Part shown: positions 1-17,766 of the stretch, piece by piece
How the letters are laid out: every line of letters begins with the position of its first letter
Position numbering within the stretch: position 1 is the stretch's first letter
Notes under the pieces: generated by a model
What the model saw: only the letters and a program-made list of their open reading frames with translations
What the model was told of the DNA's origin: nothing
Databases searched by the model: none
Origin: Sandaracinaceae bacterium
GTDB taxonomy: Bacteria; Myxococcota_A; Polyangia; Polyangiales; Sandaracinaceae
NCBI GenBank assembly: GCA_044220955.1
Contig: JBGAQA010000124.1
Coordinates: 1 to 17,766 of the forward strand
DNA length: 17,766 nt
Direction of reading: 5' to 3'
Position numbers and translations under genes: made by a program

Positions 1-2351
1 ATCGCGCTTCCCTCGGCCGGCAAGCTGAGCAGGAAGCGCGACGCGCCGAGGCCCGTCCCGAGCGTCGCGGTGCCCGCGCCTGCGACGAGGTCGAGGTGCG
101 TGGCCGATCCGCGGATCGTCGAGACGAGGCCGTCGATCGGGCGATCCGTGATCGCCCCTCCGCGCCGGAGCGCGACGACGGCGACCTCGTCGTCGGCCTC
201 GCTGGTCCACGCGACGACGTAGAGGTCGTCCTGTACGAGGAGCGGCACGCGCCGGCCGCGCCGCATGGCCGCCGAGCCGAGGCGCGCGCGCGCGACGTCC
301 GCGACGTGATCGTGGAGCGCCCGCTGCGCCGCGCTCATCGTGGTCGCGCCGCCCATCGCGAGGGACGCGAGCGAGCCCTCCCAGATCATGTCCCGGCGGT
401 TGTCCGGGTCGTTGCCGCCGGGGATCGCGATCTCGTCGCCGTAGTAGAGGAACGGGATGCCGGGCATCGCGAAGAGCGCGGTGAACGCGCGCGCGATGCG
501 GCCGTAGACGGCGGGGTCGCTGGACGTGCCCGGCAGCGTGCCACAAGCGCCGCCCGGCCAGCGGCAGTCCTGCGTGGGATCGAGCGCGGCGCGCGACGCG
601 ATGCGGTTGGTGTCGTGGGTCCCGAGGAAACGAACGTGCAGGCCGCCCGGGCGATAGCGCGTCTCCATGTCGCGCACGACGGCCTCGAGCGCGGTGAAGC
701 CCATCGACCCGTCGACGAGGCCGTGCTCCATGCGGTGGCTCGACGGGAAGTCGAACTGCCCGTCGAGGGCGTGCGGGCCGACGTAGGCGTCGATCCACTC
801 GTAACCGTTGCCGTAGCTCTGGCCGCAGCCGTAGTCGATGGAGTCGAACTCGCCGACCGCCGTCTCGCCGACCATGTAGAGGCGCGTGCCCCCCTGCTCG
901 AAGCGGCGCGAGAGCTCTGCGCGGAGGTCGTACACGGAGCTCGGCTCGACGTGCTTGACCGCGTCGACGCGGAACCCGTCGAGACCATACGCGTCGATCC
1001 AGCTCACGGCGTCGGCGATGAACTGGTGCTCCGTCGCGGGCACGCGCCAGTCGATGTCGGGCAGATAGCTCGCGAAGAGGCAGTCGAGCGGTCGCTCGCT
1101 CCAGCCGCAGCCCGGATCGATCCCGCAGACGCAGCCGGTGCGGAACCACTCGGGGTGCGCGACGAAGTACTCGTGCTGCTCGTGCACCTGGTTGTTGATC
1201 AGGTCGAGCAGCACGCGGATACCGCGGCGGTGGGCCTCGTCGACGAGGTCTCGCAGCGCATCGCCGCCCCCGAAGCGTGGCTCGACGCTGCGGGCGCGCG
1301 AGGGCCAGTAGCCGTGGTATCCGGCGTACTCCATCCCGTCGTTGCCCGGGTAGTGGCCCGTGGCCTGCTGGTTGATCGGCGAGAGCCAGAGCGTGTTCAC
1401 GCCGAGCGACTCGAAGTAGCCCGACCGCATCGCCGCCAGCACGCCCGGCAGGTCGCCGCCGTGGAAGTCCGCCGCGCGCTCCACGGGCGCGCCGACTGGA
1501 CCGTCGCTCGCCGCATGACCGTTCGCGAAGCGGTCGACGACGATCATGTACATCGAGGCGTCGCGCCACGACCACGCGTGCTCCTCGGTCCAGAACACGA
1601 GATCCACCGGCTCGGCGGCGCGGGCCATCGCGTCGGTCGCGCGCACCGCCAGCACGTGGCGGCCCGGCGAGAGATCGTCCATCGCGACGTCGAAGGCGCC
1701 GTGCTCGGGATCGAGCGTGCCGGCGACGTCGGCGCCGTCGAGGGTGAACGTCACGCGGCTCGGCAGGACGCCGTCGTGGGCGGCGAGCACGGTGACGCGT
1801 GCGCGCGCGGTGCCGCGATCCGTCGCGGCGTCGTAGGTGGTGACCACGGGCGCACCGACGATCTCCGGGCCCGCGTCGCACGCCGGGGCCAGGAACGCCG
1901 AGTTGAGGCACGCGCCGTCGTACCTCCGGTACGCCGCGTCGGGATCCAGGATCCACGTGCCGTCGACGACGAACTTGTAGGCGTGGAGCTGGCCCGGCAC
2001 GAGGCCGTCGGCCGCGCCGAGCGTGATCTCGAACGCGCCGTCCCCGTCGAGGTCGCTCATCGCGCGGGGCGTCCAGGCGCCGAAGTCGCCTGCGACCGCG
2101 ACGCTCGTCCCGCCGCCCGACCAGCGCAGCGTGACGTCGCACGAGCGCACGCCCCAGGTCGCGGCGCCGGCGTCGATGGGCGGGCCGGCGTCGTCGCCCG
2201 CGTCGGGCGCGCCGTCGCGCGCCAGCCCCGCGTCTCCACGGACGAACGCGTCGGTGCCGCCGTCGAACGACTGCGTCGGTGCGCTCGCGCAGCCGGCCCA
2301 AGGAGCGGTGCTCGCGAGCAGCAGGACCGCTATGCTGGACGCTCTTCGCAT
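1..2351 (-). CDS. Predicted lipoprotein alpha-amylase family (GH13) enzyme: signal peptide/lipobox, DAG-rich linker, CBM48-like domain, Ig-like domain, GH13 catalytic domain; 3' end runs off the window
   Basis: Hand-translated from ATG 2351: MRRASSIAVLLLASTAPWAGC (lipobox-like WAGC). CBM48-like VAVAGDFGAW...YKFVVDGTWILDP. GH13 motifs YMIVVDRFANG, FHGGDLPG, LGVNTLWLSP, GYHGYWP, DGFRVDAVKH (Asp 963-965), YMVGET (Glu 864-866), FLGTHD (Asp 612-614), PGIPFLYYGDE. No stop seen before position 1. The ORF track shows only its antisense shadow (96..2444). Confidence 0.93.
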   Translation of the reverse strand, partial: MRRASSIAVLLLASTAPWAGCASAPTQSFDGGTDAFVRGDAGLARDGAPDAGDDAGPPIDAGAATWGVRSCDVTLRWSGGGTSVAVAGDFGAWTPRAMSDLDGDGAFEITLGAADGLVPGQLHAYKFVVDGTWILDPDAAYRRYDGACLNSAFLAPACDAGPEIVGAPVVTTYDAATDRGTARARVTVLAAHDGVLPSRVTFTLDGADVAGTLDPEHGAFDVAMDDLSPGRHVLAVRATDAMARAAEPVDLVFWTEEHAWSWRDASMYMIVVDRFANGHAASDGPVGAPVERAADFHGGDLPGVLAAMRSGYFESLGVNTLWLSPINQQATGHYPGNDGMEYAGYHGYWPSRARSVEPRFGGGDALRDLVDEAHRRGIRVLLDLINNQVHEQHEYFVAHPEWFRTGCVCGIDPGCGWSERPLDCLFASYLPDIDWRVPATEHQFIADAVSWIDAYGLDGFRVDAVKHVEPSSVYDLRAELSRRFEQGGTRLYMVGETAVGEFDSIDYGCGQSYGNGYEWIDAYVGPHALDGQFDFPSSHRMEHGLVDGSMGFTALEAVVRDMETRYRPGGLHVRFLGTHDTNRIASRAALDPTQDCRWPGGACGTLPGTSSDPAVYGRIARAFTALFAMPGIPFLYYGDEIAIPGGNDPDNRRDMIWEGSLASLAMGGATTMSAAQRALHDHVADVARARLGSAAMRRGRRVPLLVQDDLYVVAWTSEADDEVAVVALRRGGAITDRPIDGLVSTIRGSATHLDLVAGAGTATLGTGLGASRFLLSLPAEGSA

Positions 2352-2401
2352 CGACGATGCATGGTGGCCGCTCCCCTCGCGGGCGTCCACACGGAGGCTC
2401 G

Positions 2402-5080
2402 GTGGCAGTCAGGCTCGATCGACCCGCGCTCCTCTCGCTCGTGATGGCGCTGGCGGGGTGCGGCCCCACGACCACGCCCGGGGTCGACGCCGCGACCGAC
2501 GGGGGCGTGCCCGCGATGGACACGGGGCTCGACGCAGCGCCCGACGCGCCCGCACCCGTCGACGTCGGACCGGACGCGAACGTGGACGCCGGGCCCATCG
2601 ACTGCGTCACGGCGCCCGCCGCGACCCCGGGCAGCGACGCGCTCGACGACACGCTCGGGCGCGCGACCGTGACCATCGACGACCGCAGCGCATGCCGACG
2701 GACGTACACGATCGACAGCAACGCCGTGCGCCGCGACATGCTCCCTGCGGGCCCGCGCGTCGTCATCGAGCGCTCGGGCACGCCCACGCTTCGCACGGGA
2801 AGCGATCTCTTCGACGCGCTCTTCGCCCTCGCGCTCGACGAGGTCCACGAGGCGAGCGTCGCGTCGATCTCCGACGGCGCGTTCGACTCGGGACGCGCGC
2901 TCCCCTGCCCGAGCGGCGGCTGCTTCGAGACGGGACGTCTCTGGACGTACGTGTGGACGCGCGACACGTCGTTCTCGGTCGACCTCTCGCTCGCCGCGAT
3001 CGATCCGCTCCGCGCGCTCAACTCGCTCTCGTTCAAGCTCAGCGAGCGGCGCGGCGGGGGGGGCATGCAGGTCGTGCAGGACACCGGCTCCGGCGGGAGC
3101 TATCCGGTCTCGAGCGATCGCGTCGTCTGGGCGCTCGCGGCGGCGCGGCTCCTTCCGGAGCTCGAGGGCGCGGACCACGACGCGTTCCGGGATCGCGCGT
3201 ACGCGGCGCTCTCGGCCACGCTCGCTCACGATCGCGAGGCCGTCTTCGACGCGAGCACCGGCCTCTACCGCGGCGAGACCTCGTTCCTCGACTGGCGCGA
3301 GCAGACATACCCCGCGTTCACCGCGGGCGACGTCACGCCGATCGCCGACGGCGAGGCGCTCTCGACGAACGTCCTGCACCTCGAGGCGCTGCGCGCGGCC
3401 TCCGCGCTCGCGGCCCAGCGCGGCGACGCGGGCGAGCACGACCGGCTCGCGACCCAGGCCTCGGAGCTGGCGACGCGCATCCACGCGACCTTCTGGGACG
3501 ACTCGGCGGGCGAGCTCTCCGCGCTCCTCCCGGGCACGCTCGATCGCGCACCCGTGCGCCGCCGCGATCTGCTCGGCACCTCGCTCGCGATCCTGGCGGG
3601 GGTCGTGAGCCCGTCCGAGGGACGGCGCGCGCTCTCGGCCTACCCGCACTTCGCGCGCGGCGCGCCGGTGATCGCGCCACAGCAGCAGCAGACGGCCATC
3701 TATCACGACCGCGCGCAGTGGCCCTTCGTCACGGCCTACGAGGCGCTCGCGGCGCGCGAGGTCGGGCACGCCGGCGCGATGACGCACGCCGTGCGCACGC
3801 TCGTGCGCGGGGCGGCGCTCAGCCTCTCGAACGTGGAGAACTACGAGCTGCCCTCCGGCCTGCCGTACGTGATGGACGGCGCGTTCTCGGGGCCCGTCGT
3901 GAGCTCGCAGCGGCAGCTCTGGAGCGTCGCCGGCTGGATCGGCATGGTGACGCGCGGCCTCTTCGGCCTGGACGCGCAGGAGGACGGCCTGCACGTCGCG
4001 CCGTACCTCCCTGCCGACGTCCTGAGCGAGCACTTCGCGGGGCAGCGCGAGCTGACCCTGGTGAGCTGGCCCGCGCGCGGACGGCGCGTCACGGTGGTGC
4101 TCCACCTGCCCGCGAGCGCCGCGCCCGCGGGCGGCGAGTACGTCAGCTCCACGATCCGGGTCGACGGCAGCCCGGCGGCGAGCCCGGTCCCGTGGGGCAC
4201 CCTGCAGGGCGCGAGCCGGATCGACGTCGATCTGGTGGGGAGCGCGGGCGCGAGCGCGACGGTCCGCGCGGTGGACCCGGCCGACTGGCACGACGTGTAC
4301 GGTCCGCGCACGCCCGCCGTCTCGGCGATCACGGTCGAGAGCGGCCACCTGCGGCTCGCCTTCGACCTCGGCGGCGAGCCGTCCGCCGACGTGACCGTGG
4401 CCGTGTACCGCGACGGCGCGCGCATCGCGGACGGGCTGACGACGGCGAGCTACCTCGACGCGAGCGTCGATGCGTCCTCGCCGCGCACGCCTTGCTACGC
4501 GATCGAGACCTGCTTCGGCGGCCACGGCGGGGCGCCACCCAGCTGCTCGCAGCACTCCGCGCCCGCGTGCTTCTGGGGAGCGGCGGGCGAGCGCGTGGCC
4601 GTGATCGACGCCTCGAGCTTCGCCGCGACCGGCGGCGCACCCGCCAGTGATCACGGCCGCTTCCACTACGAGGCGTGGGGCGATCCCGGCCACCGGCTCG
4701 ACGTCTCGGGCATCCGCCCGGCGCAGACCGGCGAGTACCTGATCCAGCTGACGTACGGCAACGGCTCCGGACCGATCAGCACGGGCGTCACGTGCGCGGT
4801 CAAGCGCGTCGTCGTCGAGGACGAGGTGAGCCATGCGATCGTCGGCACCGGCGTCGTCGTCATGCCCCAGCTCGGGGACTGGGACCGCTGGGCCGGCTCG
4901 ACGTTCGTGCGCGTATCGCTCGACGCGTCGCGCACCTACCACCTCGCCATCGTCGGCGACGACACCACCGTCAACATGAGCGCGTTCGACCACTTCGCGC
5001 GCTACACCGCCGGCACCGGCGGCGCGAGCGGCCGCTTCGAGCGCGTGAACGTCGCGGACCTGCGCCTCTTGGCGCTCTGA
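2402..5080 (+). CDS. Predicted lipoprotein six-hairpin (alpha/alpha)6 glycoside hydrolase (amylo-alpha-1,6-glucosidase/MGH1-like) with FN3/Ig-like and C-terminal CBM6/CBM35-like domains
   Basis: Part of ORF 2279..5080. Start moved to GTG 2402 (GGAGG at 2393-2397) to avoid overlap with the GH13 gene, giving MAVRLDRPALLSLVMALAGC (lipobox LAGC). Motifs FETGRLWTYVWTRDTSFS, QDTGSGGSYPVSSDRVVW, YRGETSFLDWREQTYP, YHDRAQWPFV, SNVENY, QLWSVAG. C-terminal GEYLIQLTYGNG...VVMPQLGDWDRW resembles CBM35-like modules. Exact GH family not resolvable by eye. Confidence 0.8.
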   Translation: MAVRLDRPALLSLVMALAGCGPTTTPGVDAATDGGVPAMDTGLDAAPDAPAPVDVGPDANVDAGPIDCVTAPAATPGSDALDDTLGRATVTIDDRSACRRTYTIDSNAVRRDMLPAGPRVVIERSGTPTLRTGSDLFDALFALALDEVHEASVASISDGAFDSGRALPCPSGGCFETGRLWTYVWTRDTSFSVDLSLAAIDPLRALNSLSFKLSERRGGGGMQVVQDTGSGGSYPVSSDRVVWALAAARLLPELEGADHDAFRDRAYAALSATLAHDREAVFDASTGLYRGETSFLDWREQTYPAFTAGDVTPIADGEALSTNVLHLEALRAASALAAQRGDAGEHDRLATQASELATRIHATFWDDSAGELSALLPGTLDRAPVRRRDLLGTSLAILAGVVSPSEGRRALSAYPHFARGAPVIAPQQQQTAIYHDRAQWPFVTAYEALAAREVGHAGAMTHAVRTLVRGAALSLSNVENYELPSGLPYVMDGAFSGPVVSSQRQLWSVAGWIGMVTRGLFGLDAQEDGLHVAPYLPADVLSEHFAGQRELTLVSWPARGRRVTVVLHLPASAAPAGGEYVSSTIRVDGSPAASPVPWGTLQGASRIDVDLVGSAGASATVRAVDPADWHDVYGPRTPAVSAITVESGHLRLAFDLGGEPSADVTVAVYRDGARIADGLTTASYLDASVDASSPRTPCYAIETCFGGHGGAPPSCSQHSAPACFWGAAGERVAVIDASSFAATGGAPASDHGRFHYEAWGDPGHRLDVSGIRPAQTGEYLIQLTYGNGSGPISTGVTCAVKRVVVEDEVSHAIVGTGVVVMPQLGDWDRWAGSTFVRVSLDASRTYHLAIVGDDTTVNMSAFDHFARYTAGTGGASGRFERVNVADLRLLAL

Positions 5081-5116: not shown

Positions 5117-5797
5117 TCAGGCGGCCGTGGAGCCCGCGGAGCGCCTGCCCTCGGCCCAGCCCTGGGCCCCGACGAGCGGCACGAACCTCACGGCCGCCAG
5201 CTCCTCCTCGCGGAGCGCATCGCCCTCGCGCGTCACGCGCACCAGCTGCTGCTCCGCGAGCGTCGCGCCGACGGGCATGACCAGCCGTCCGCCGGGCGCG
5301 AGCTGCGCGAGGAGCGCCTCCGGCACGCCGGGGCCCGCCGCGGCGACGACGATCGCGTCGAAGGGCGCGTACCCGGGGGCGCCGAGCGTTCCGTCTCCCT
5401 CGAGGATCCGCACGTTGGCGAAGCCGAGGCGCGCGAGGCGCTCGGCGGCCTCGCGCGCGAGCGACGCGTGGCGCTCGATCGTGATCACCTCGCGCGCCAT
5501 GCGCGCGAGGATCGCGGCGGCGTAGCCCGAGCCGGTGCCGACCTCGAGGACGCGCTCACGGCCCTCGAGGTGCAGTGCCTCCACCATCGCCGCGACGATG
5601 TAGGGCTGCGAGATGGTCTGGCCCTCGGCGATCGGCAGCGGCGCGTCGTCGTGGGCCTCGTCGACGAGCTCGGGCGGGACGAACGCCTCGCGCGGCACCT
5701 CGAGGAACGCCGCGAGGAGGCGGCGATCGGCGATGCCGCGCCGCGCGATCTGCCGGTCCACCATCCGGGCTCGGGCGAGCTCGCGCGCTGTCGTCAC
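5117..5797 (-). CDS. pcm: Protein-L-isoaspartate(D-aspartate) O-methyltransferase
   Basis: RMVDRQIARRGI, VPREAFVP, LPIAEGQTISQPYIVA, VLEVGTGSGYAAA, APFDAIVVAAA, QLAPGGRLVMPVG, VRFVPLVG. Start trimmed from 6109 to GTG 5797 (ATG 5764 is an alternative). Confidence 0.95.
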   Translation of the reverse strand: MTTARELARARMVDRQIARRGIADRRLLAAFLEVPREAFVPPELVDEAHDDAPLPIAEGQTISQPYIVAAMVEALHLEGRERVLEVGTGSGYAAAILARMAREVITIERHASLAREAAERLARLGFANVRILEGDGTLGAPGYAPFDAIVVAAAGPGVPEALLAQLAPGGRLVMPVGATLAEQQLVRVTREGDALREEELAAVRFVPLVGAQGWAEGRRSAGSTAA

Positions 5798-5885
5798 GCT
5801 CTCATCGGTACACACGCGCCCCCGGCCCGTCCACCCCCCCGATCGGCGCGCATTCCGCGCGCGGCCTGCTACATACGCCGCCGCC

Positions 5886-7925
5886 GTGAGCACCGTCGTA
5901 CTCGAAGACGTCTCCCTCTCCTTCGGAGCGCGCCCCATCCTCGACGGGCTCTCCCTGCGAATCGCGGAGGGGGACCGCATCGGGCTGATCGGGCCGAACG
6001 GCTCGGGCAAGAGCACGCTCTTGCGCATCCTGGCCGGGGAGCAGCAGCCCGACTCGGGGACGGTCCGCACGGCACGCGGGGTGCGCATCGGCTGGCTGCC
6101 CCAGGACATCGCCGTCGGCGGCGGCCAGGCGCTCCTGCCCTTCGTGATGAAGAGCGTCCCGGGGCGCGCGGCGCTCGAGGCCGATCTCGCGGCGGCCGAG
6201 GCGATGGTCGAGGATCTCGCGACGAAGGAGGCGCACGACGAGATCGTGGCGGCCTCCGAGCGGCTCGCCGACCTGCACGCCGAGCTCGCGCGCTTCGACG
6301 CGCACTACTCCGAGCACGAGGCGATGAAGATCCTCGCGGGGCTCGGGTTCCGCACCGAGGAGAATGGTCGGGACCTGGGCGAGCTCAGCGGCGGCTGGAA
6401 GATGCGCGCGGTGCTCGCCGCCCTGCTCTTCTCGCGTCCGGACGTGCTCTTGCTCGACGAGCCGACCAACCACCTCGACATGCCCTCGGTCGCGTGGTTC
6501 GCCGACTTCTTGAAGGCGTATTCGCGCGCGTTCGTCCTGATCTCGCACGACCGCGAGTTCCTCAACGAGCAGATCGCGCGCGTGGTGACCTTCGAGGTCG
6601 AGGGCGTGCGCCAGTACCCGGGCAACTACGAGCGCTACCTCGTGCAGCGGGCCGAGGAAGAGGAGATCCTCGAGAACAAGGCCAAGAACCTCGAGCGCGA
6701 GCGGGAGAAGGCCGAGCAGTTCATCAACCGCTTCCGCGCACAGGCGACCAAGGCGCGCGCCGTCCAGAGCCGAATCAAGGCGCTCGACAAGATGGAGTCG
6801 GCCGAGACGTACCGGAAGCGGCGCACGATGGCGTTCACGTTTCCGGAGGCCCAGCGCGCGGGGCACGAGGTGGTGCGCATCGACGGCGTCGGCAAGAGCT
6901 ATGGCGAGCACCGCGTGCTGCGCGACGTGACGCTGCGCGCGTACCGCGACGATCGCATCGGCATCATCGGGCCGAACGGCGCCGGCAAGACGACGCTCCT
7001 CAAGATGATCGCCGGCGAGATCGAGACGAGCGCCGGCGCGATCACGCTGGGGCACTCGGTCACGCCCGGCTACTACGCGCAGCACCACGCCGAGCTCTTG
7101 ACCGCGAAGAACACGGTGCTCGACGAGGTGGCGTCGGAGAATCGCGAGGTCGGCCAGACGCGCGTGCGCAGCGTGCTGGGCGCGTTCCTCTTCAGCGGGG
7201 ACGACGTCGACAAGACCGTCCAGGTGCTCAGCGGCGGCGAGCGCGCGCGCGTGGCGCTGGCGAAGCTCCTGGTCCGCCCCGGCAACCTGCTCCTGCTCGA
7301 CGAGCCGACGAACCACCTCGACCTCGACTCGTGCGAGAGCCTCATCGAGTCGCTCGGCGGGTTCGGGGGCACGATGGTCTTCGTCAGCCACAACCGCGCG
7401 CTCATCCGCCGGCTCGCGACGAAGATCTGGGTCGTCGAGGGCGGGACGGTCACCGAGTACATGGGAACGCTCGACGACTACATGGCCCGCGAGCGCCAGA
7501 AGCTGCAGCAGGCGGCCAAGGACGCGACCGCCCTGAAGCAGTCCTCCGCGCCCGCCAGGAGCAAGTCGCCGACGCACCCGCCGCCGAGGCCCGACGCGCG
7601 CCCGATCGCGGCGCCCGCTGCGGCACCCGTCGACGAGCGAGCGCGACGTCGCGACGAGGCGCACAAGCGCGAGCAGCGCAACAAGGTCATCGCGCCCCTC
7701 AAGAAGAAGGTCGAGGAGCTCGAGGCCCGCATCGCCGAGATCGAGACGAAGCAGGCCGAGCGCAACGCCAAGCTCTGCGACGCGACGGCGGTGCTCACCG
7801 ACAAGGAGCGCTTCGCGCTGCTCGATGGCCTGCAGGTCGATCAGAGCAAGCTGGACGAGCTGACGGAGCGCTGGGAGCACACGCAGAAGGAGCTGGACGA
7901 GAAGGAGCGGGGGCTGCTCAGCTGA
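5886..7925 (+). CDS. ABC-F family ATP-binding protein (ribosome-associated ATPase, YheS/YdiF/Uup-like) with C-terminal coiled coil
   Basis: Two ABC domains and no TM segments: GPNGSGKST/LSGGWKMR/LLLDEPTNHLD/SHDR and GPNGAGKTT/LSGGERAR/LLLDEPTNHLD/SHNR. ABC-F linker YPGNYERY...FINRFRAQATKARAVQSRIKALDK. Start trimmed to GTG 5886. Confidence 0.95.
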   Translation: MSTVVLEDVSLSFGARPILDGLSLRIAEGDRIGLIGPNGSGKSTLLRILAGEQQPDSGTVRTARGVRIGWLPQDIAVGGGQALLPFVMKSVPGRAALEADLAAAEAMVEDLATKEAHDEIVAASERLADLHAELARFDAHYSEHEAMKILAGLGFRTEENGRDLGELSGGWKMRAVLAALLFSRPDVLLLDEPTNHLDMPSVAWFADFLKAYSRAFVLISHDREFLNEQIARVVTFEVEGVRQYPGNYERYLVQRAEEEEILENKAKNLEREREKAEQFINRFRAQATKARAVQSRIKALDKMESAETYRKRRTMAFTFPEAQRAGHEVVRIDGVGKSYGEHRVLRDVTLRAYRDDRIGIIGPNGAGKTTLLKMIAGEIETSAGAITLGHSVTPGYYAQHHAELLTAKNTVLDEVASENREVGQTRVRSVLGAFLFSGDDVDKTVQVLSGGERARVALAKLLVRPGNLLLLDEPTNHLDLDSCESLIESLGGFGGTMVFVSHNRALIRRLATKIWVVEGGTVTEYMGTLDDYMARERQKLQQAAKDATALKQSSAPARSKSPTHPPPRPDARPIAAPAAAPVDERARRRDEAHKREQRNKVIAPLKKKVEELEARIAEIETKQAERNAKLCDATAVLTDKERFALLDGLQVDQSKLDELTERWEHTQKELDEKERGLLS

Positions 7926-7938
7926 GGTCGCTCTCGCC

Positions 7939-8568
7939 GTGACCTCCTTGGCCCGAATGGCGCTCGCCACCACCGCCGGTCTCGCGCTCGCCGCGACGGG
8001 CGGTGCGCTCGCCTCCGCCCAGGGTCCCGCGGCAGGTTCCGCCGCACGTCGCGCGCGACAGGGGGCGCTCGCGAACGTGTCGGCGTCGCTCTTCCTGCCG
8101 ACGCGCGCGAGCCGCCAGATCGACACCGTCTACCTGGACCTCGTCGCGGGCGTGGAGCTCTGGGAGCTGCTCGGCGTCGACCTCTACGCGGGAATCACCG
8201 TCGTGGCGGCGTCCGGCTTCGTCCTCCAGCCGGACGAGCTCCTCGCCGATCGCCGATACGATACGTCGGTCGCCGGTGCGGGCCCGACGTTCCTGTTCCG
8301 CGTCGAGCCGCTGCGTATCGAGGGCCTCTCGGTCGCGGCCGACGTCACCGGCTCGCTGCTCCTGTTCAGCGCGCGCTTCCCGCCGGGCGGCGACGTCTAC
8401 GACTTCGCCTGGCGAATCGGCGGGACGCTCGGCTACGCGCTCACTGCTGCGCTGCGCGTCGAGCTCTCCGTCCGCTGGATGCACACCTCGAACGGCCAAG
8501 GGATCGGCCCCTTCAACCCAGCGTACGAGGGGGTCGGCGGCTACCTCGGGACCCAGACCACGCTCTGA
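7939..8568 (+). CDS. Outer-membrane beta-barrel protein, PagL-like (lipid A 3-O-deacylase / acyloxyacyl hydrolase family)
   Basis: N-terminal signal peptide, alternating amphipathic strands, FPPGGDVYDF, and C-terminal RWMHTSNGQG..NP matching the PagL H-x-S-N catalytic motif. Confidence 0.65.
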   Translation: MTSLARMALATTAGLALAATGGALASAQGPAAGSAARRARQGALANVSASLFLPTRASRQIDTVYLDLVAGVELWELLGVDLYAGITVVAASGFVLQPDELLADRRYDTSVAGAGPTFLFRVEPLRIEGLSVAADVTGSLLLFSARFPPGGDVYDFAWRIGGTLGYALTAALRVELSVRWMHTSNGQGIGPFNPAYEGVGGYLGTQTTL

Positions 8569-12458: not shown

Positions 12459-13421
12459 TCAGCTCGCGACGACCACGCGGTCGCGCCCCTGCTCCTTGGC
12501 GCGGTAGAGGGCCGCGTCCGCCCGGGCGATCAGGGCGTCGCGCACCTCGCCCGGGCGACGCTCGGCGACGCCGAGCGAGAGCGTGACGGTCACCGGCTCC
12601 TTCGGGACGCGCAGCGGCGACATCCGCACGGCGAGCCGCGCACGCTCGGCGACGCCCTGCGCGCGCCCGCGGTCGGTACCCGGCAGCACCAGCAGGATCT
12701 CCTCGCCCCCGTAGCGGACCACCGCGTCTCCCGCGCGCACGACCCCGCCGAGGATGGTGGTCACGTGCTTGAGCACGAGATCGCCGACCGCGTGGCCGTG
12801 CGTGTCGTTGACGCGCTTGAAGTGGTCGATGTCGGCGAGCACGACCGACACGGTCGCGTCGGGCGCCGCGTCGACCGGGAACGTCTCGTCGAGCCCGCGG
12901 CGGTTGAGCGCCCCGGTGAGCGGATCGGCGCGAGAGAGCCGCGCGAGGCGCGCGATCTCGACGTAGGGCGCGCAGAGCGCCGCGACGAGGACGAGGAGGC
13001 GCTCGTGCTCCTCGGTGAACGGGACGCCGGCACCACCGACGGCGCTCAGGACGCCGGTGACGTGCGCCCCGGCGCGGATGGGGACGCCGAGGAACGAGCC
13101 GAGCCGCTCGCTCATCGACGCGCGCGCGACGTAGCTGGGGTGCTGCTCGGGCTCGTTCGTGCGGACGACGCGCCCCGTCGCGGCGACGTGCCCGAGCAGC
13201 CCCTCGCCGACGCGGAAGTCCTCGTGCCGCGCATGCACCGGCTCTCCCGCGCGCGCGATGGCGAGCAGGTGCGTGTGCGTCGGGTTCAAGAGGCGCACGC
13301 TCACGCGCGGCGTTCCGAGGATCTCCGCGCTCCGATCGGCGATGAGCGAGAGGAGCGCCTCGAGCGAGTGCCGCCCCGTCATCTCCTCGGCCAGGCGGGT
13401 GACGGCGGTGAGAGCGTCCAC
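12459..13421 (-). CDS. GAF-domain sensor diguanylate cyclase (GAF-GGDEF)
   Basis: GAF: GEGLLGHVAATG...SFLGVPI...GVLSA..FTEEHERLL. GGDEF: DPLTGALNRR, DIDHFKRVNDTHGHAVGD, RAGD (I-site) then AVVRY-GGEEI, ADAALYRAKEQGRDRV. Start placed at GTG 13421 (track gives 13436). Confidence 0.93.
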   Translation of the reverse strand: MDALTAVTRLAEEMTGRHSLEALLSLIADRSAEILGTPRVSVRLLNPTHTHLLAIARAGEPVHARHEDFRVGEGLLGHVAATGRVVRTNEPEQHPSYVARASMSERLGSFLGVPIRAGAHVTGVLSAVGGAGVPFTEEHERLLVLVAALCAPYVEIARLARLSRADPLTGALNRRGLDETFPVDAAPDATVSVVLADIDHFKRVNDTHGHAVGDLVLKHVTTILGGVVRAGDAVVRYGGEEILLVLPGTDRGRAQGVAERARLAVRMSPLRVPKEPVTVTLSLGVAERRPGEVRDALIARADAALYRAKEQGRDRVVVAS

Positions 13422-13427
13422 GCGTCC

Positions 13428-13433
13428 ACTGTA
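13428..13433 (-). promoter_or_regulatory. Putative -10 element (TACAGT) for a leaderless GAF-GGDEF transcript
   Basis: Minus strand reads TACAGT-ggacgc-GTG(13421). Confidence 0.5.
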
Positions 13434-13445
13434 CACAGGTTCGAT

Positions 13446-13477
13446 TTGACGCCGTGCGGGTTCGTGCGTTACACGAT
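13446..13477 (+). promoter_or_regulatory. Putative sigma70-type promoter of the trp leader/operon
   Basis: TTGACG at 13446-13451 and an AT-richer TACACGAT at 13470-13477, ending 6 nt before GTG 13484. The -35/-10 spacing (18-20 nt) is not ideal. Confidence 0.5.
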
Positions 13478-13483
13478 CCGAGC

Positions 13484-13585
13484 GTGCTCGTCCCCTGCAC
13501 CTCCGGCCACATCGCCCTCCCCGGCGCCGCGAACGCGGCGTCGCGCTGGTATTGGCGTCTGCCGGAGGTGGCTCTGGGCGGCTGA
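13484..13585 (+). CDS. Putative trp operon leader peptide (TrpL-like), 33 aa: MLVPCTSGHIALPGAANAASRWYWRLPEVALGG
   Basis: GTG 13484 to TGA 13583-13585. Trp codons at 13547-13549 and 13553-13555. Ends 99 nt before trpE and overlaps the first of the alternative helices. Confidence 0.75.
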   Translation: MLVPCTSGHIALPGAANAASRWYWRLPEVALGG

Positions 13586-13678
13586 CGCGAGACGTTCTCC
13601 CCCCAGTAGCTCCACCTCCGGCGCCGCCGGTGGTGGATCGCTCCCGATCGCCGCCGGCTGCGCCTCGAACCCCGAGGC
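13561..13678 (+). promoter_or_regulatory. Putative attenuator RNA with alternative helices 1:2, 2:3, 3:4 and an SD-sequestering hairpin
   Basis: 1:2 = 13561-13571/13612-13622 (11 perfect bp). 2:3 = 13611-13622/13626-13637 (11 of 12). 3:4 = 13626-13640/13645-13658 (14 bp including 2 G-U and 1 bulge). GCCTCG 13662-13667 pairs with CGAGGC 13673-13678, covering the GAGG SD. Confidence 0.7.
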
Positions 13679-13684
13679 CCCCCG

Positions 13685-15070
13685 ATGCGACCGACGCCCT
13701 TCGACATCCCCGCCGACCTGGACACGCCAGTGTCCGCGTTCCGCAAGCTCGCGCCGTTCCGCCCTCGCTACCTGCTCGAGTCGGTGGAGGGCGGCGAGCG
13801 GCTCGGCCGCCACAGCTTCATCGGCTTCGGCGAGGCGATGGAGGTGCGCCTCGAGGCAGGCCTGCTCACCATCGACGGCACCTCCGTGCCGCTCGCCGAC
13901 GGGCGTGACGCGCTGCTGCACGCGCTGCGCGGCGCCCTCGCCCGCGCACCACGGCCTCGCGCGGGCGAGGCACGGCTGCCCTTCGCCGGCGGGCTCGTCG
14001 GCGCCATGGGCTTCGAGCTCGCGCGCCGCCTGGTCCGAGTACGCTCGCCGCGGCACGCCGCTTCCGGCCCGGAGCTCGCCCTCTCGGGGACGCGCTCGGT
14101 GCTCGTGTTCGATCACGTCGCGCGGCGCTGCGCCGTGCTCCACGACGGCGACGAGGTCGAGCGCGCGAGCCTGCGCCGCGAGGTGATCGCCGCGCTCCGA
14201 GGACCGCTCGCGGCACCGCGGGTGCGCACGCGCGTCGGGCCGTCGACCGCGTCGATGAGCGAGCCCGAGGCGCTCGCCGCGATCGCTCGCGCGCAGGAGC
14301 ACATCCGCGCCGGCGACGTCTTCCAGCTGGTCCTCTCCCTCGCCCACGAGGGCGAGGCGCAGATCGATCCCTTCGAGGCCTACCGCGCCCTGCGCCTCAC
14401 GAACCCGTCGCCCTACATGTTCTTCCAGGACTTCGGCGACGTGCAGCTGGCCGGCAGCTCGCCCGAGGCGCTCGTCCGCCTCGAGGGGCGCACCGCGCAC
14501 CTGCGCCCCATCGCAGGCACCCGGCCGCGCGGCGAGACTCAGGACGACGACGATGCGCTCGCCCGCGAGCTCTTGGCCGACGACAAGGAGCTGGCCGAGC
14601 ACGTGATGCTCGTCGATCTCGCGCGCAACGACGTGGGTCGCGTGGCGACGACCGGCTCGGTGGTGGTCGAGCCCTACCGGACGATCGAGCGCTACAGCCA
14701 CGTGATGCACACCGTGAGCGGCGTGCGCGGCACGCTCGCGGACGGCAAGGACGCCTTCGATCTCTTCGCCGCGGCGTTCCCGGCCGGGACCGTGAGCGGG
14801 GCGCCCAAGGCGCGCGCGCTAGAGCTCATCGACGCGATCGAGCCCTGCGCGCGCGGCTTCTACGCCGGGACCGTCGGGTACTTCGGCCACGGAAGCGTCA
14901 GCGACCACGCGCTCGCGATCCGCTCGATCTCGTTCGGTGAGGGCCGCTATCGATACCAGGCGGGCGCCGGCATCGTGGAGGCGAGCCGACCCGAGGCCGA
15001 GATCGCCGAGATGCACGCCAAGACGGCGGTGATGAAGGGCGCGCTCCGGCTCGCCGAGGAGGGGCTCTGA
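13685..15070 (+). CDS. trpE: Anthranilate synthase component I
   Basis: DLDTPVSAF, YLLESVEGG (LLES) and NPSPYMF Trp-feedback motifs, GSSPE, PIAGTRPRG, KELAEHVMLVDLARND, FPAGTVSGAPK, QAGAGIV; heads the trp operon. Confidence 0.95.
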   Translation: MRPTPFDIPADLDTPVSAFRKLAPFRPRYLLESVEGGERLGRHSFIGFGEAMEVRLEAGLLTIDGTSVPLADGRDALLHALRGALARAPRPRAGEARLPFAGGLVGAMGFELARRLVRVRSPRHAASGPELALSGTRSVLVFDHVARRCAVLHDGDEVERASLRREVIAALRGPLAAPRVRTRVGPSTASMSEPEALAAIARAQEHIRAGDVFQLVLSLAHEGEAQIDPFEAYRALRLTNPSPYMFFQDFGDVQLAGSSPEALVRLEGRTAHLRPIAGTRPRGETQDDDDALARELLADDKELAEHVMLVDLARNDVGRVATTGSVVVEPYRTIERYSHVMHTVSGVRGTLADGKDAFDLFAAAFPAGTVSGAPKARALELIDAIEPCARGFYAGTVGYFGHGSVSDHALAIRSISFGEGRYRYQAGAGIVEASRPEAEIAEMHAKTAVMKGALRLAEEGL

Positions 15071-15672
15071 TGCCGGCGCAGACACGGGCGAAGGTGGTCG
15101 TGGTCGACAACTACGACTCGTTCACGTTCAACCTCGTGCAGGCCCTCGCGGTCCTCGGCGCGGACGTGCACGTCGTGCAGAACGACCGCGTCGAGGTCCA
15201 GGGGGTCGTCGGGATGCGCCCCACGCACGTGGTGATCTCGCCCGGCCCGGGGCGACCGGAGGACGCGGGTGTGTCCCTGGCGGTCGTCCTGGCCGCGCTC
15301 GACGGAGCGGTCGAGGCGCGCGTGCTCGGCGTCTGCCTCGGGCACCAGTGCCTCGGCCTCGCCGCCGGCGGTCGCGTCGTGGCCGCCAAGCGCCTGATGC
15401 ACGGACGCGCGGACGCGCTCGATCACGACGGGCGCGGGATCTTCCGCGGGCTGCCGCGGCCGCTCGTGGCCGGTCGCTACCACTCGCTCGCGGTCGAGGC
15501 GGCGAGCCTGCCGGCCTCGCTCGAGGTGAGCGCGCGCTCGGGCGACGGAGAGGTGATGGCGCTGCGCCACGCGTCCGGCCGGGTCGACGGCGTGCAGTTC
15601 CACCCGGAGAGCATCCTGACGCCCGACGGCGTGCGCCTGCTCGACGGCTTCCTGAGCGGAGGTGTGCCGTGA
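15070..15672 (+). CDS. trpG: Anthranilate synthase component II (glutamine amidotransferase)
   Basis: VVDNYDSFTFNL, ISPGPGRP, LGVCLGHQ, RYHSL, QFHPES; TGATG overlap with trpE. Confidence 0.95.
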   Translation: MPAQTRAKVVVVDNYDSFTFNLVQALAVLGADVHVVQNDRVEVQGVVGMRPTHVVISPGPGRPEDAGVSLAVVLAALDGAVEARVLGVCLGHQCLGLAAGGRVVAAKRLMHGRADALDHDGRGIFRGLPRPLVAGRYHSLAVEAASLPASLEVSARSGDGEVMALRHASGRVDGVQFHPESILTPDGVRLLDGFLSGGVP

Positions 15673-16712
15673 GCCCGCTCGTCCGGCAGGTGCTGGACGG
15701 CGCGCGCCTCGACGAGGCGGGGGCCGAGGCGCTGATGGACGCGCTCGCGACGACCGACCTCGAGCCCGCGGCGATCGCGGCGCTCCTCACGACGCTCCGG
15801 GCGCGGGGCGAGACCGCCGACGAGGTTGCCGGCTTCGCGCGCTCGCTGCGGCGTCACGCGCGTCGACCGGAGATCCCGGGCGCCGAGCGGGCCGCCGACA
15901 CCTGCGGGACCGGGGGCGACCGCGCGTCGAGCTTGAACCTCTCGACGGCGGCGGCGCTCCTCGCGGCCGCGTGCGGCGCACCGATCGTGAAGCACGGCAA
16001 TCGCTCCGTCTCGAGCCGCTCGGGGAGCGCCGACGTGCTCGAGGCGCTCGGGATCGCCCTGCCGGACAGCGAAGGGGACGCGGCGCGCATGTTCGCGCGC
16101 GCCGGCTTCGCGTTCCTGTTCGCGCCGCGACATCACCCCGCCCTCGCGCGCGTGATGCCGGTCCGGCGCGCGCTCGGCGTGCGGACCGTGTTCAACCTGC
16201 TCGGGCCGCTCGTGAGCCCCGTCGCGCCGCGATTCCAGGTCACGGGCGCCTACAGCCTCGAGGCCGCGCGGGTGATGGCCGGCGCCCTCGCCCGCCTCGG
16301 CGTCGAGCGCGCGCTCGTCGTCCACGGCGCCGAGGGCTGGGACGAGCCGACACCGCTCGGCCCCTTCGTCGCGATCGAGGTCGCCGACGGTCGGATCGAC
16401 GAGAGGGTCCGCGATCCCCTCGACCTCGGGATGGCGCGCTGCACCGCGGCCCCTCTGCGTGGAGGCGACGCCCACACGAACGCGCGCCGGCTGCGCGCGG
16501 TGCTCGAGGGCAGCGAGCGGGGGCCGCACCGCGACGCGGTCGTCCTCGGTGCGGCGCTCGTGCTCGAGGTCGCCGGACACGCCCAGAGCGCCCGCGAGGG
16601 CGTCGCCCTCGCCAGCGCGGCCATCGACCGTGGCGAGGGCGAGCACCTGCTCTGGAACCTCGTCGAGGCGAGCCGCGCCAGGGCGCGAGATGGCGAGCGA
16701 GCCGGTGTCTGA
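15669..16712 (+). CDS. trpD: Anthranilate phosphoribosyltransferase
   Basis: RGETADE, DTCGTGGD, NLST, KHGNRSVSSRSGSADVLEALG, FLFAPRHHPA, RTVFNLLGPL, GWDE. Start GTG 15669 (GTGA overlap with trpG). Confidence 0.96.
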   Translation: MSPLVRQVLDGARLDEAGAEALMDALATTDLEPAAIAALLTTLRARGETADEVAGFARSLRRHARRPEIPGAERAADTCGTGGDRASSLNLSTAAALLAAACGAPIVKHGNRSVSSRSGSADVLEALGIALPDSEGDAARMFARAGFAFLFAPRHHPALARVMPVRRALGVRTVFNLLGPLVSPVAPRFQVTGAYSLEAARVMAGALARLGVERALVVHGAEGWDEPTPLGPFVAIEVADGRIDERVRDPLDLGMARCTAAPLRGGDAHTNARRLRAVLEGSERGPHRDAVVLGAALVLEVAGHAQSAREGVALASAAIDRGEGEHLLWNLVEASRARARDGERAGV

Positions 16713-17523
16713 CTTCCTCGACGAGATGACGCGCGCGAGCCGGGCCCGCGCCGCGGCGCTCGCTCCCCGCGCGGGCGAGCTGCGGGCGCTCGCGGAGCGC
16801 TCCGCCGCGCCGCTGCCCCTGGTCCTCGGCGACCTCGGCGTGATCGCGGAGATCAAGCCGCGCGCCCCGTCGGCGGGGACGCTGGGCGCGGCCGACGCGA
16901 GCGCCGGACCAGAGCGTGCGCTGGCGTACGCGGATGGCCTCGCGGCCTGCGTGTCGGTGCTGACCGAGCCGACGCGCTTCGACGGCTCGCTCGAGCTGCT
17001 CGCGGCCGTCTCGCGCGCACTGCGCGATCGTGGCGTGCCGACCATGCGCAAGGACTTCCTCGTCGATCCCACGCAGCTCGCCGAGGCTCGCATCGCGGGG
17101 GCGAGCGGCGTGCTGCTGGTCGTCCGGATGCTGAGCGACGGGCAGCTGGCCGAGCTCGTCGACGCCGCAAGGTCCCTGCGGCTCTTCGCGCTGATCGAGG
17201 CGTTCGACGAGGCCGATCTCGAGCGGGCGGCGCGCACGATCGAGCGGACGCCCACCGGCGTGTTCCTGGGCGTGAACTGTCGCGACCTCGTGACGCTGGC
17301 CATCGATCGGACGCGGCTCGGCGCGCTCGCGCGCGCGCTTCCTCCGAACGTGGAGGCGGTCGCCGAGAGCGGGATCGCTTCCGAGATCGACGTGCGGGCG
17401 GCCGTGCGCGCGGGCTATCGCGGCGTGCTCGTCGGCACCGCGCTCATGCGCTCGGCCGATCCCGGCCGAGCCGTGCGGGCGCTCCGCGACGCCGGTCGCG
17501 CGGAGGCCCGCTCGTGTACGTGA
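16705..17523 (+). CDS. trpC: Indole-3-glycerol-phosphate synthase
   Basis: IAEIKPRAPSAG, SVLTEPTRFDGS, RKDFLVDP, GVNCRDL, VAESGI, VLVGTALM. Start GTG 16705 (ATG 16690 is an alternative). Confidence 0.94.
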   Translation: MSDFLDEMTRASRARAAALAPRAGELRALAERSAAPLPLVLGDLGVIAEIKPRAPSAGTLGAADASAGPERALAYADGLAACVSVLTEPTRFDGSLELLAAVSRALRDRGVPTMRKDFLVDPTQLAEARIAGASGVLLVVRMLSDGQLAELVDAARSLRLFALIEAFDEADLERAARTIERTPTGVFLGVNCRDLVTLAIDRTRLGALARALPPNVEAVAESGIASEIDVRAAVRAGYRGVLVGTALMRSADPGRAVRALRDAGRAEARSCT

Positions 17524-17766
17524 AGATATGTGGGCTGACCGAGCCCGAGCACGTCGAGGCGGCGCTCGACGCGGGCGCGAGCGCCGTCGGCTTCGTGCTG
17601 GTCGACTCCCCTCGGCGGGTCTCGGTCGAGCGGGCGCGCGCGCTCGCCGAGCGCGCCGGACCCCGCGTCGATCGCGTCGCCGTGTTCCGGACGCTCGACG
17701 ACGAGGCCATCGACGCCGCGCGCGCGGCCGGATGCACGCACGTCCAAGCCTGCGCCTCGCGCGAGA
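17514..17766 (+). CDS. trpF: Phosphoribosylanthranilate isomerase, N-terminal part (runs off the window)
   Basis: Hand-translated from GTG 17514 (GGAGG at 17502-17506): MYVKICGLTEPEHVEAALDAGASAVGFVLVDSPRRVS...; not in the ORF track. Confidence 0.92.
   Translation, partial: MYVKICGLTEPEHVEAALDAGASAVGFVLVDSPRRVSVERARALAERAGPRVDRVAVFRTLDDEAIDAARAAGCTHVQACASRE

Follow-up and report, generated by a model that had tools for sequence, protein, structure and literature searches.

A tryptophan-sensing leader ahead of trpEGDCF in a Sandaracinaceae bacterium, possibly converted from transcription attenuation to translational control of trpE

The 17,766-nt stretch of DNA analysed here (the window) ends in a trp operon, and its trpE gene is preceded by a leader that carries Trp codons and alternative helices of the kind used in ribosome-mediated attenuation. 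No U-tract follows any of these helices and rho was not detected in the family of the host, which raises the question of how such a leader could control the genes behind it. A preliminary description of the window had proposed a 33-codon frame with TGG-TAT-TGG ahead of trpEGDCF. This frame lies at 13484-13585, encodes W-Y-W and is followed by trpE, trpG, trpD, trpC and the beginning of trpF, so that both the leader frame and its Trp codons are firmly placed at the level of sequence. The promoter, leader and operon consist of the following features.

13446-13451, forward strand: −35 element of a likely sigma70-type promoter, kept in two congeners and in the clade.
13470-13475, forward strand: degenerate −10-like element, with an 18-nt spacer to the −35 element, in an aligned conserved block in three genomes.
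13484-13585, forward strand: trpL leader ORF, GTG start, 33 codons plus TGA, encoding W-Y-W.
13547-13555, forward strand: sensing codons Trp-Tyr-Trp, with Trp at 13547-13549 and 13553-13555, also within classical segment 1.
13685-15070, forward strand: trpE, anthranilate synthase component I of a non-native clade (TIGR00564, E 7e-128, under its cut-off).
15070-15672, forward strand: trpG (TIGR00566, above cut-off).
15669-16712, forward strand: trpD (TIGR01245, above cut-off).
16690-17523, forward strand: trpC (PRK00278 families, under cut-offs; inferred start codon).
17520-17766, forward strand: trpF (PF00697), cut by the contig end.

The leader frame has no Pfam match. In two congeners the corresponding leaders encode W-Y-W and W-L-W, followed by the same six residues. 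The sensing codons had been described as standing in a low-GC3 run, which is not the case: GC3 is 30/33 (0.91) in the leader, where only three codons end in T, versus 0.93 in trpE. The trpL stop codon is separated from the trpE start by 100 nt. As expected of enzymes made during Trp shortage, no Trp residue occurs in the TrpE or TrpG frame; none occurs in the TrpC frame, and TrpD has two. The trpB gene is found at the start of another contig (C244; G000:C244:1-1104), and in three relatives it lies ~3 kb 3′ of trpE.

A strict consensus promoter scan called no promoter ahead of trpL because the −10 element is degenerate; by eye, a TTGAC −35 with a degenerate −10 is also present at several tRNA genes of the host genome. 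The predicted transcript start is 0-3 nt 5′ of the leader GTG, which would make the transcript near-leaderless. Across the clade, the first in-frame start falls 33-41 nt from the −35 element in 47 of 50 leaders and in 2 of 100 out-of-frame controls, a spacing that is partly circular in that the leader test itself demanded a nearby −35. This spacing suggests that the clade leaders are probably near-leaderless, as has also been reported for alphaproteobacterial trpL in the available text of PMC6614838.

Several neighbouring genes were recorded alongside the operon. A GAF-GGDEF diguanylate cyclase gene (12459-13436, reverse strand) is divergent from the trp promoter; in congener G004 there is no such gene at this place and a DUF4202 gene reaches the trp promoter directly, a difference that likely reflects a recent insertion or loss. 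A few kilobases 5′ of the trp leader is an ABC-F family ATPase gene (5613-7925). A 933-codon frame (2279-5080) matches neither Pfam nor NCBIfam and by eye resembles a secreted glycoside hydrolase, and a 209-codon frame (7939-8568) without a Pfam match resembles, again by eye, an outer-membrane protein.

The operon appears to be foreign to its host, a genome of 7.5 Mb with 72.5% GC and 88% completeness. TrpE of the window is 80-82% identical to TrpE of the two congeners, about 60% identical to the rest of its clade and about 45% identical to the native TrpE of the family. With a threshold of E 1e-120 or better, this TrpE type is restricted to 4 of the 32 genomes of the family and 4 of 401 sampled from the order. 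It recurs in 19 more of 401 genomes sampled from the phylum, and also in 46 of 61 that were drawn for their relatedness to a record with the title Gammaproteobacteria, a draw from which loci were taken for 30 of 47 matches. Most of the other family and order genomes carry the native TrpE, often divergent from a glyA-like gene (a label assigned by reading). In a quick tree, 71 clade rows were split from 12 outgroup rows with a support of 100, and a grouping of the three genus rows with six native rows was rejected (p-AU 0.031). The tree separation and the rejected native grouping make it likely that operon and leader were acquired together from another lineage, horizontally, and took the place of the native trpE. 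The native-type trpE genes of loci L026 and L029 share a conserved promoter region with a short inverted repeat just 5′ of trpE, which by eye may be a transcription-factor operator.

The regions upstream of trpE in related genomes were surveyed for leaders containing WW or WxW in a short frame with a promoter-linked start, at loci with enough upstream sequence. Such a leader is present in 52 of 71 distinct clade trpE genes (55 of 74 loci before three duplicates were removed). When the 300 nt upstream were shuffled with dinucleotides preserved, 4 of 5,000 shuffles passed the test, and none of the 25 regions ahead of native-type trpE genes in this family and order did so. Among 51 aligned leaders, double changes numbered 36 in the 2:3 helix and 35 in the 3:4 helix, and both counts, which relatedness inflates, exceeded those of 500/500 shuffles and of slid controls. 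The Trp codons and helices are thus kept in the two congeners and in the TrpE clade, which bears out the earlier suggestion that a myxobacterium-like genome carries a Trp-sensing leader of the TrpL type. We are highly confident that this is a Trp-responsive leader of some kind.

The 52 leaders fall into two classes. A hairpin followed by a U-tract is present in 37, and 15 have no U-tract (U-less leaders); the latter make up 13 of the 18 same-phylum leaders versus 2 of 34 others. The remaining 19 clade trpE genes are leaderless and all of them are from the same phylum. On the best tree, eight changes between the U-tract and U-less states occur among the leader rows, and the starred branches force at least three changes of the U-less label. 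In seven leaders (L179, L188, L194, L198, L199, L004 and L154) the stop codon comes 9-12 nt past the final Trp codon and so precedes segment 2 or falls inside it, and the usual distance is 24-45 nt. Outside this clade, trpE genes of Syntrophales and related Deltaproteobacteria type are preceded by leaders in which 3-4 Trp codons are combined with U-tract hairpins (L035, L038-L040, L045, L051 and L096, and from metagenomes L099-L113, L133, L145 and L146), several of them with two tandem terminator-like hairpins.

Rfam families gave no match at gathering score in the window or in six related loci, and by E-value only chance matches (E ≥ 1.8) in the window. A covariance model, R1, scored only its own training leaders well when run against 5 and 151 genomes, and it missed one of these, that of congener G005; none of 20 weaker matches that were inspected was a Trp leader. 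A 19-nt leader motif had no match in a scan of viral contigs. Two sets of candidates were rejected: a terminator on contig C55 resembling the attenuator hairpin is an ordinary gene-end terminator, and six other promoter-linked short frames, one of them with a Phe run, are antisense to or inside long frames. Of four DNA sequencing runs examined over the leader, one covers it entirely without differences and may be its source, and no divergent variants were seen; four metatranscriptome runs yielded only scattered short contigs with small word shares.

Downstream of the Trp codons, the leader contains a chain of segments that compete for partners.

13561-13571, forward strand: segment a, corresponding to classical segment 2, the antiterminator arm; 11 nt, G-rich, invariant in three genomes.
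13612-13622, forward strand: segment b, corresponding by model alignment to classical segment 3, the 5′ arm of the ancestral terminator hairpin.
13626-13637, forward strand: segment c, corresponding by model alignment to classical segment 4, the 3′ arm of the ancestral terminator hairpin.
13645-13658, forward strand: segment d, an added fifth segment, with c or the trpE start region as partner.
13662-13678, forward strand: short hairpin e:f (−10.5 kcal/mol), which buries the 4-nt Shine-Dalgarno core at 13674-13677.
13682-13693, forward strand: trpE start region that pairs with d, lengthening the stem to span 13645-13693.

Segment a begins 5 nt past the last Trp codon and 11 nt past the first. 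The three alternative pairings proposed earlier were located as described: a is the exact complement of b, the a:b stem extending inward around the leader stop codon; b pairs alternatively with c, with a single U-U mismatch; and a helix is possible between 13626-13640 and 13645-13658 (c:d, −24.5 kcal/mol). In addition, a 1:2 hairpin can arise when the Trp region folds back on a. The region 13484-13720 folds with a z score of −4.62, and none of 200 shuffles was equally stable. Three genomes whose TrpE proteins differ by ~20% have identical segments a and b and an unchanged last Trp codon, and spacers and loops vary freely. By inspection, the changes in c and d among these genomes preserve c:d pairing, each being one-sided. 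Stems between d and the trpE start are predicted in all three genus genomes. In G005, an N-terminal trpE insertion supplies a longer match to d, which suggests selection on this pairing. The e:f hairpin retains its arms in the congeners, has an altered loop and is predicted in both states of the leader.

To which classical segments these arms correspond follows from a model built solely from the 37 U-tract leaders. Its best match in the window is the leader (E 0.0096), with b:c placed on the terminator hairpin and a on the G-rich antiterminator arm; only the U-tract is missing. At E < 0.05 this model also matched 9 of 14 other U-less loci and two Trp leaders of a different TrpE clade, and none of four native-type loci. 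One uniform hairpin rule likewise selects b:c for the window and, where a leader has a U-tract, the hairpin just ahead of it (the rule mis-assigned L183, which was kept in the counts, and called no hairpin in L204, which was dropped). Because a, b and c align with the G-rich arm and the two terminator arms, a is identified by alignment as segment 2 and b:c as the old terminator. The numbering of the preliminary description is therefore off by one: its segment 1 is classical segment 2, and its 2:3 pairing is the ancestral terminator hairpin.

We then considered how such a leader might act on expression. A terminator scan of 13000-14200 returned no site, and only two T are present in the 8 nt after b:c. 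With no U-tract after b:c or c:d, classical termination is unavailable, and it would be wrong to class the leader with the classical transcription attenuators. U-tracts are rare throughout this genome, with 53 U-tract terminators in 7.5 Mb, and none of 41 strong hairpins between convergent genes is followed by five or more T, so the loss of the leader U-tract may be a lineage trait. Strong U-less hairpins between convergent genes are somewhat enriched (41 vs 27 of 110 after shuffling).

Rho appears to be missing as well. The rho model TIGR00767 had no match in any of 25 family genomes, two of which are 100% complete in 1-2 contigs, or in 34 order genomes that include these 25; it matched 18 of 18 other phylum genomes and four of four others. 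Two of ten further order genomes have rho, which brings the order to 2 of 44. The Rho RNA-binding domain PF07497 was absent from five of five genomes, and in the host genome (88% complete) only distant ATPases match Rho. Rho-dependent polarity of the tnaC type was dropped as an output for this reason. The available text of PMC11347177 lists Rho for Sorangium and Chondromyces and its absence in Haliangium, and, with respect to Rho, contains Sandaracinus only in a dataset table, as failing a conservative filter; its supplement places Sandaracinus in Myxococcota. The family and order genomes in which rho was sought are large, GC-rich and poor in U-tract terminators. In family f52 (L232, G560:C81; L233, G815:C35), the sole Rho match is far under the cut-off, and the Walker A lysine, its position judged against canonical Rho, is replaced in both proteins inspected, which suggests an ATPase-dead Rho. 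The TrpR repressor (PF01371) was found in none of five genomes.

The trpE entry site tends to be more deeply buried in U-less leaders than in the other classes. The median cost of opening the Shine-Dalgarno zone is 9.5 kcal/mol in U-less leaders versus 4.5 in U-tract leaders (p 0.0009) and 4.8 at the 19 leaderless trpE genes (p 0.007), and the excess holds among loci with at least 0.66 GC (p 0.027 and 0.040, respectively). Burial beats nearly all local shuffles at 6 of 15 U-less loci versus 1 of 37 U-tract and 1 of 19 leaderless loci. In the predicted structure of the window, opening costs 11.2 kcal/mol, which none of 25 local shuffles reached. Moreover, freeing segment 4 makes the entry site cheaper to open in 14 U-less leaders, by a median of 5.5 kcal/mol, and the corresponding median for 37 U-tract leaders is −0.6 (p 0.006); 4 of the 14 switch in the wrong direction, and a shuffled segment 4 often equals the real one, which is better in 8 of 14. 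Only three independent pairs sit on supported branches, and contrasts over these gave 1.5 versus 0 for strong burial and 0.6 versus 0.6 for switching.

Our preferred reading, to which we give about an even chance, is that a classical transcription attenuator has here been converted to translational control of trpE. Initiation on trpL would be near-leaderless, as in known attenuators, and when charged tRNA-Trp is low the ribosome would stall on the UGG codons at 13547-13555. Folding predicts that the stalled ribosome favours a:b and c:d, which would release the start codon region and leave only the short hairpin over the Shine-Dalgarno sequence, so that trpE could be translated while these two helices hold. 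When Trp is ample, the ribosome would run through a to the stop codon; b:c would form and d would be freed, and d could then build the long stem 13645-13693 over both the Shine-Dalgarno sequence and the start codon. Because start and stop codons overlap along the operon, repression would presumably reach trpG, trpD, trpC and trpF through translational coupling or mRNA decay.

Modelling predicts the two states and the change of the entry-site stem between them. With d, the entry-site stem is calculated at −21.7 kcal/mol in the window, compared with −12.5 without it, and the corresponding values in the congeners are −17.5 versus −8.0 and −27.2 versus −9.4; the long stem is thus stronger than the short one by 9 to 18 kcal/mol in the three genus genomes. 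When only the RNA downstream of the ribosome is folded, a ribosome at the first Trp codon gives a:b in three of three genus leaders and a:b together with c:d in two of three, and a ribosome at the stop codon gives b:c and d:start in all three. The classes separate in such folds at p < 0.05 with only one of eight parameter sets. The Shine-Dalgarno sequence is unpaired at 0.00-0.07 in most window folds, with a maximum of 0.21, and its hairpin is expected whichever state the leader adopts, so that even the ON state would not be clearly open. In equilibrium folds of the whole leader, the classes do not differ in switching (p 0.34), and the opening cost in the window is 15.0 at the first Trp codon and 9.2 at the stop, which is the wrong direction. 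The b:c plus d:start fold wins in the window only for transcripts that end 9-15 nt past the start codon, and c:d is back at transcript ends +30 and +60. After ribosome release, a can capture d in two of three genus leaders.

The main rival to a translational switch, which we consider unlikely, retains the ancestral polarity: b:c would stop the polymerase without a U-tract, helped by NusA, NusG or another factor, c:d would strengthen antitermination, and the entry-site stems would be secondary, in a lineage without Rho and with few U-tract terminators. The terminator homologue b:c is indeed fully conserved in the genus, c:d forms once d is made, as an antiterminator helper would, and the enrichment of U-less hairpins between convergent genes sits beside the scarcity of U-tract terminators. 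However, U-poor hybrids rarely release polymerase, which counts against a stop at a hairpin followed by two T in 8 nt; the 53 U-tract terminators indicate that the polymerase can presumably use them; and the excess burial of the entry site in U-less leaders would be left unexplained.

The switch as originally drawn inverts this logic. A stall on the second Trp codon would cover the start of a, and b:c would serve as an antiterminator that blocks c:d, itself a U-less terminator or a repressive hairpin. We keep this as a minor rival, improbable as it is, because the spacer from the Trp codons to a (5 nt from the last, 11 nt from the first) is the shortest among 14 U-less leaders; a 13-nt footprint past the second Trp codon also gives b:c a probability of 0.91 once c is complete, and the strong c:d helix is retained through one-sided changes. 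Yet when the proposed mask is applied to 13535-13568, c:d still forms (P 0.90) and b:c does not (P 0.07). The inversion would also reverse a polarity for which 37 relatives follow the classical scheme, and in several of them the spacer behind the last Trp codon is about as short, at 6-8 nt. Like b:c, c:d lacks a U-tract, and b:c would free d onto the trpE start, which means repression under starvation.

A further reading that we judge equally improbable is that the attenuator, once acquired, ceased to have an output in its GC-rich hosts and is now a decaying remnant that no longer regulates. The leaderless state of 19 of 37 same-phylum clade trpE genes and the inconsistent folding support for switching in the window fit such a remnant, but a, b and the last Trp codon would hardly be invariant in three genomes, nor the added helices retained, in a leader that was decaying. 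Least probable is a switch that governs mRNA processing or decay by exposing a nuclease site or removing a protective hairpin: very stable alternative stems exist, and the lack of Rho and of a U-tract leaves decay as a possible output, but translational control explains the burial of the entry site more simply.

If conversion to translational control is the correct reading, the rewiring could have occurred several times independently in Myxococcota and relatives, a proposal that we hold somewhat more tentatively than the conversion itself: the U-tract would have been lost, an anti-Shine-Dalgarno arm gained and the 3′ arm of the terminator turned into the anti-sequestering strand. The Rho-less Sandaracinaceae would then own a Trp sensor that is independent of both intrinsic and Rho-dependent termination. 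Should U-less termination be true instead, the 200-nt leader would be a compact, inducible test of how transcription stops in a GC-rich lineage with no detectable Rho and a scarcity of U-tract terminators. The 37 U-tract leaders and 15 U-less homologues form a natural series for the change of an attenuator's output, and they add a widespread family of near-leaderless Trp attenuators outside the coverage of Rfam.

Riboswitches and T-boxes are well-known cases in which the output has shifted between termination and control of translation. Within the literature searched, which did not extend to subscription journals, we found no myxobacterial trp attenuator, no 1-2-3-4 attenuator converted in this way and no publication on the 37 U-tract attenuators of the clade, and the novelty of a converted trp attenuator is accordingly provisional. 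The leader element of the window is not described in the available text of PMC4833913 or PMC13434334. The leaders ahead of trpE or trpGDC that the latter presents as Pseudomonas trpL1 and trpL2 likewise have Arg-flanked codons of the W-x-W type.

With classical trp attenuators, the leader shares a short ORF with near-tandem Trp codons before trp genes and mutually exclusive 2:3 and 3:4 helices. It differs from E. coli trpL and from the attenuators described in the available text on S. meliloti trpL-trpE(G) (PMC6614838) and Corynebacterium and Streptomyces trp (PMC1262725) in that no poly-U follows 3:4; moreover, extra downstream helices reach the trpE Shine-Dalgarno sequence and start codon, and no Rfam family matches. 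The actinobacterial trp attenuators described in PMC1262725 are GC-rich hairpins followed by poly-U, which indicates that a high GC content is not in itself enough to eliminate the tract. The 37 U-tract attenuators of the TrpE clade, most of whose genomes bear a Gammaproteobacteria-related title or were drawn on that relationship, are direct homologues with the same Trp run, G-rich arm and hairpin; in them the U-tract is retained and the entry site is more open.

What the leader shares with translational attenuators is an ORF with sensing codons and a predicted structure that buries the downstream ribosome-binding site. In B. subtilis, rtpLP senses Trp codons and acts by direct ribosome occlusion a few nucleotides from the site, whereas the trpL stop here is 100 nt from the trpE start. 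The cat attenuator senses an antibiotic, and the position of the ribosome on its leader ORF sets access to the site. In ermC, as described in the available text of 10.1101/834739, the position of the leader ribosome likewise determines how accessible the next gene's ribosome-binding site is, in response to an antibiotic. The actinobacterial LEU element and the translational ileS T-boxes (in the available text of PMC1262725) also represent predicted or described shifts from termination to translation initiation in GC-rich bacteria, but they have a different sensor and structure and do not derive from a 1-2-3-4 trp attenuator. On the basis of the portions available, the closest described mechanism is the mycobacterial polycysteine attenuator Ms5788A (10.1101/834739), in which a leaderless small ORF and an amino-acid-dependent stall likewise determine the availability of the Shine-Dalgarno sequence rather than termination. 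There, in bacteria that have Rho, the sensing tract responds to Cys and itself pairs with the Shine-Dalgarno region; here, by contrast, Trp would be sensed and the signal passed on through a predicted relay of helices inherited from a terminator-type attenuator.
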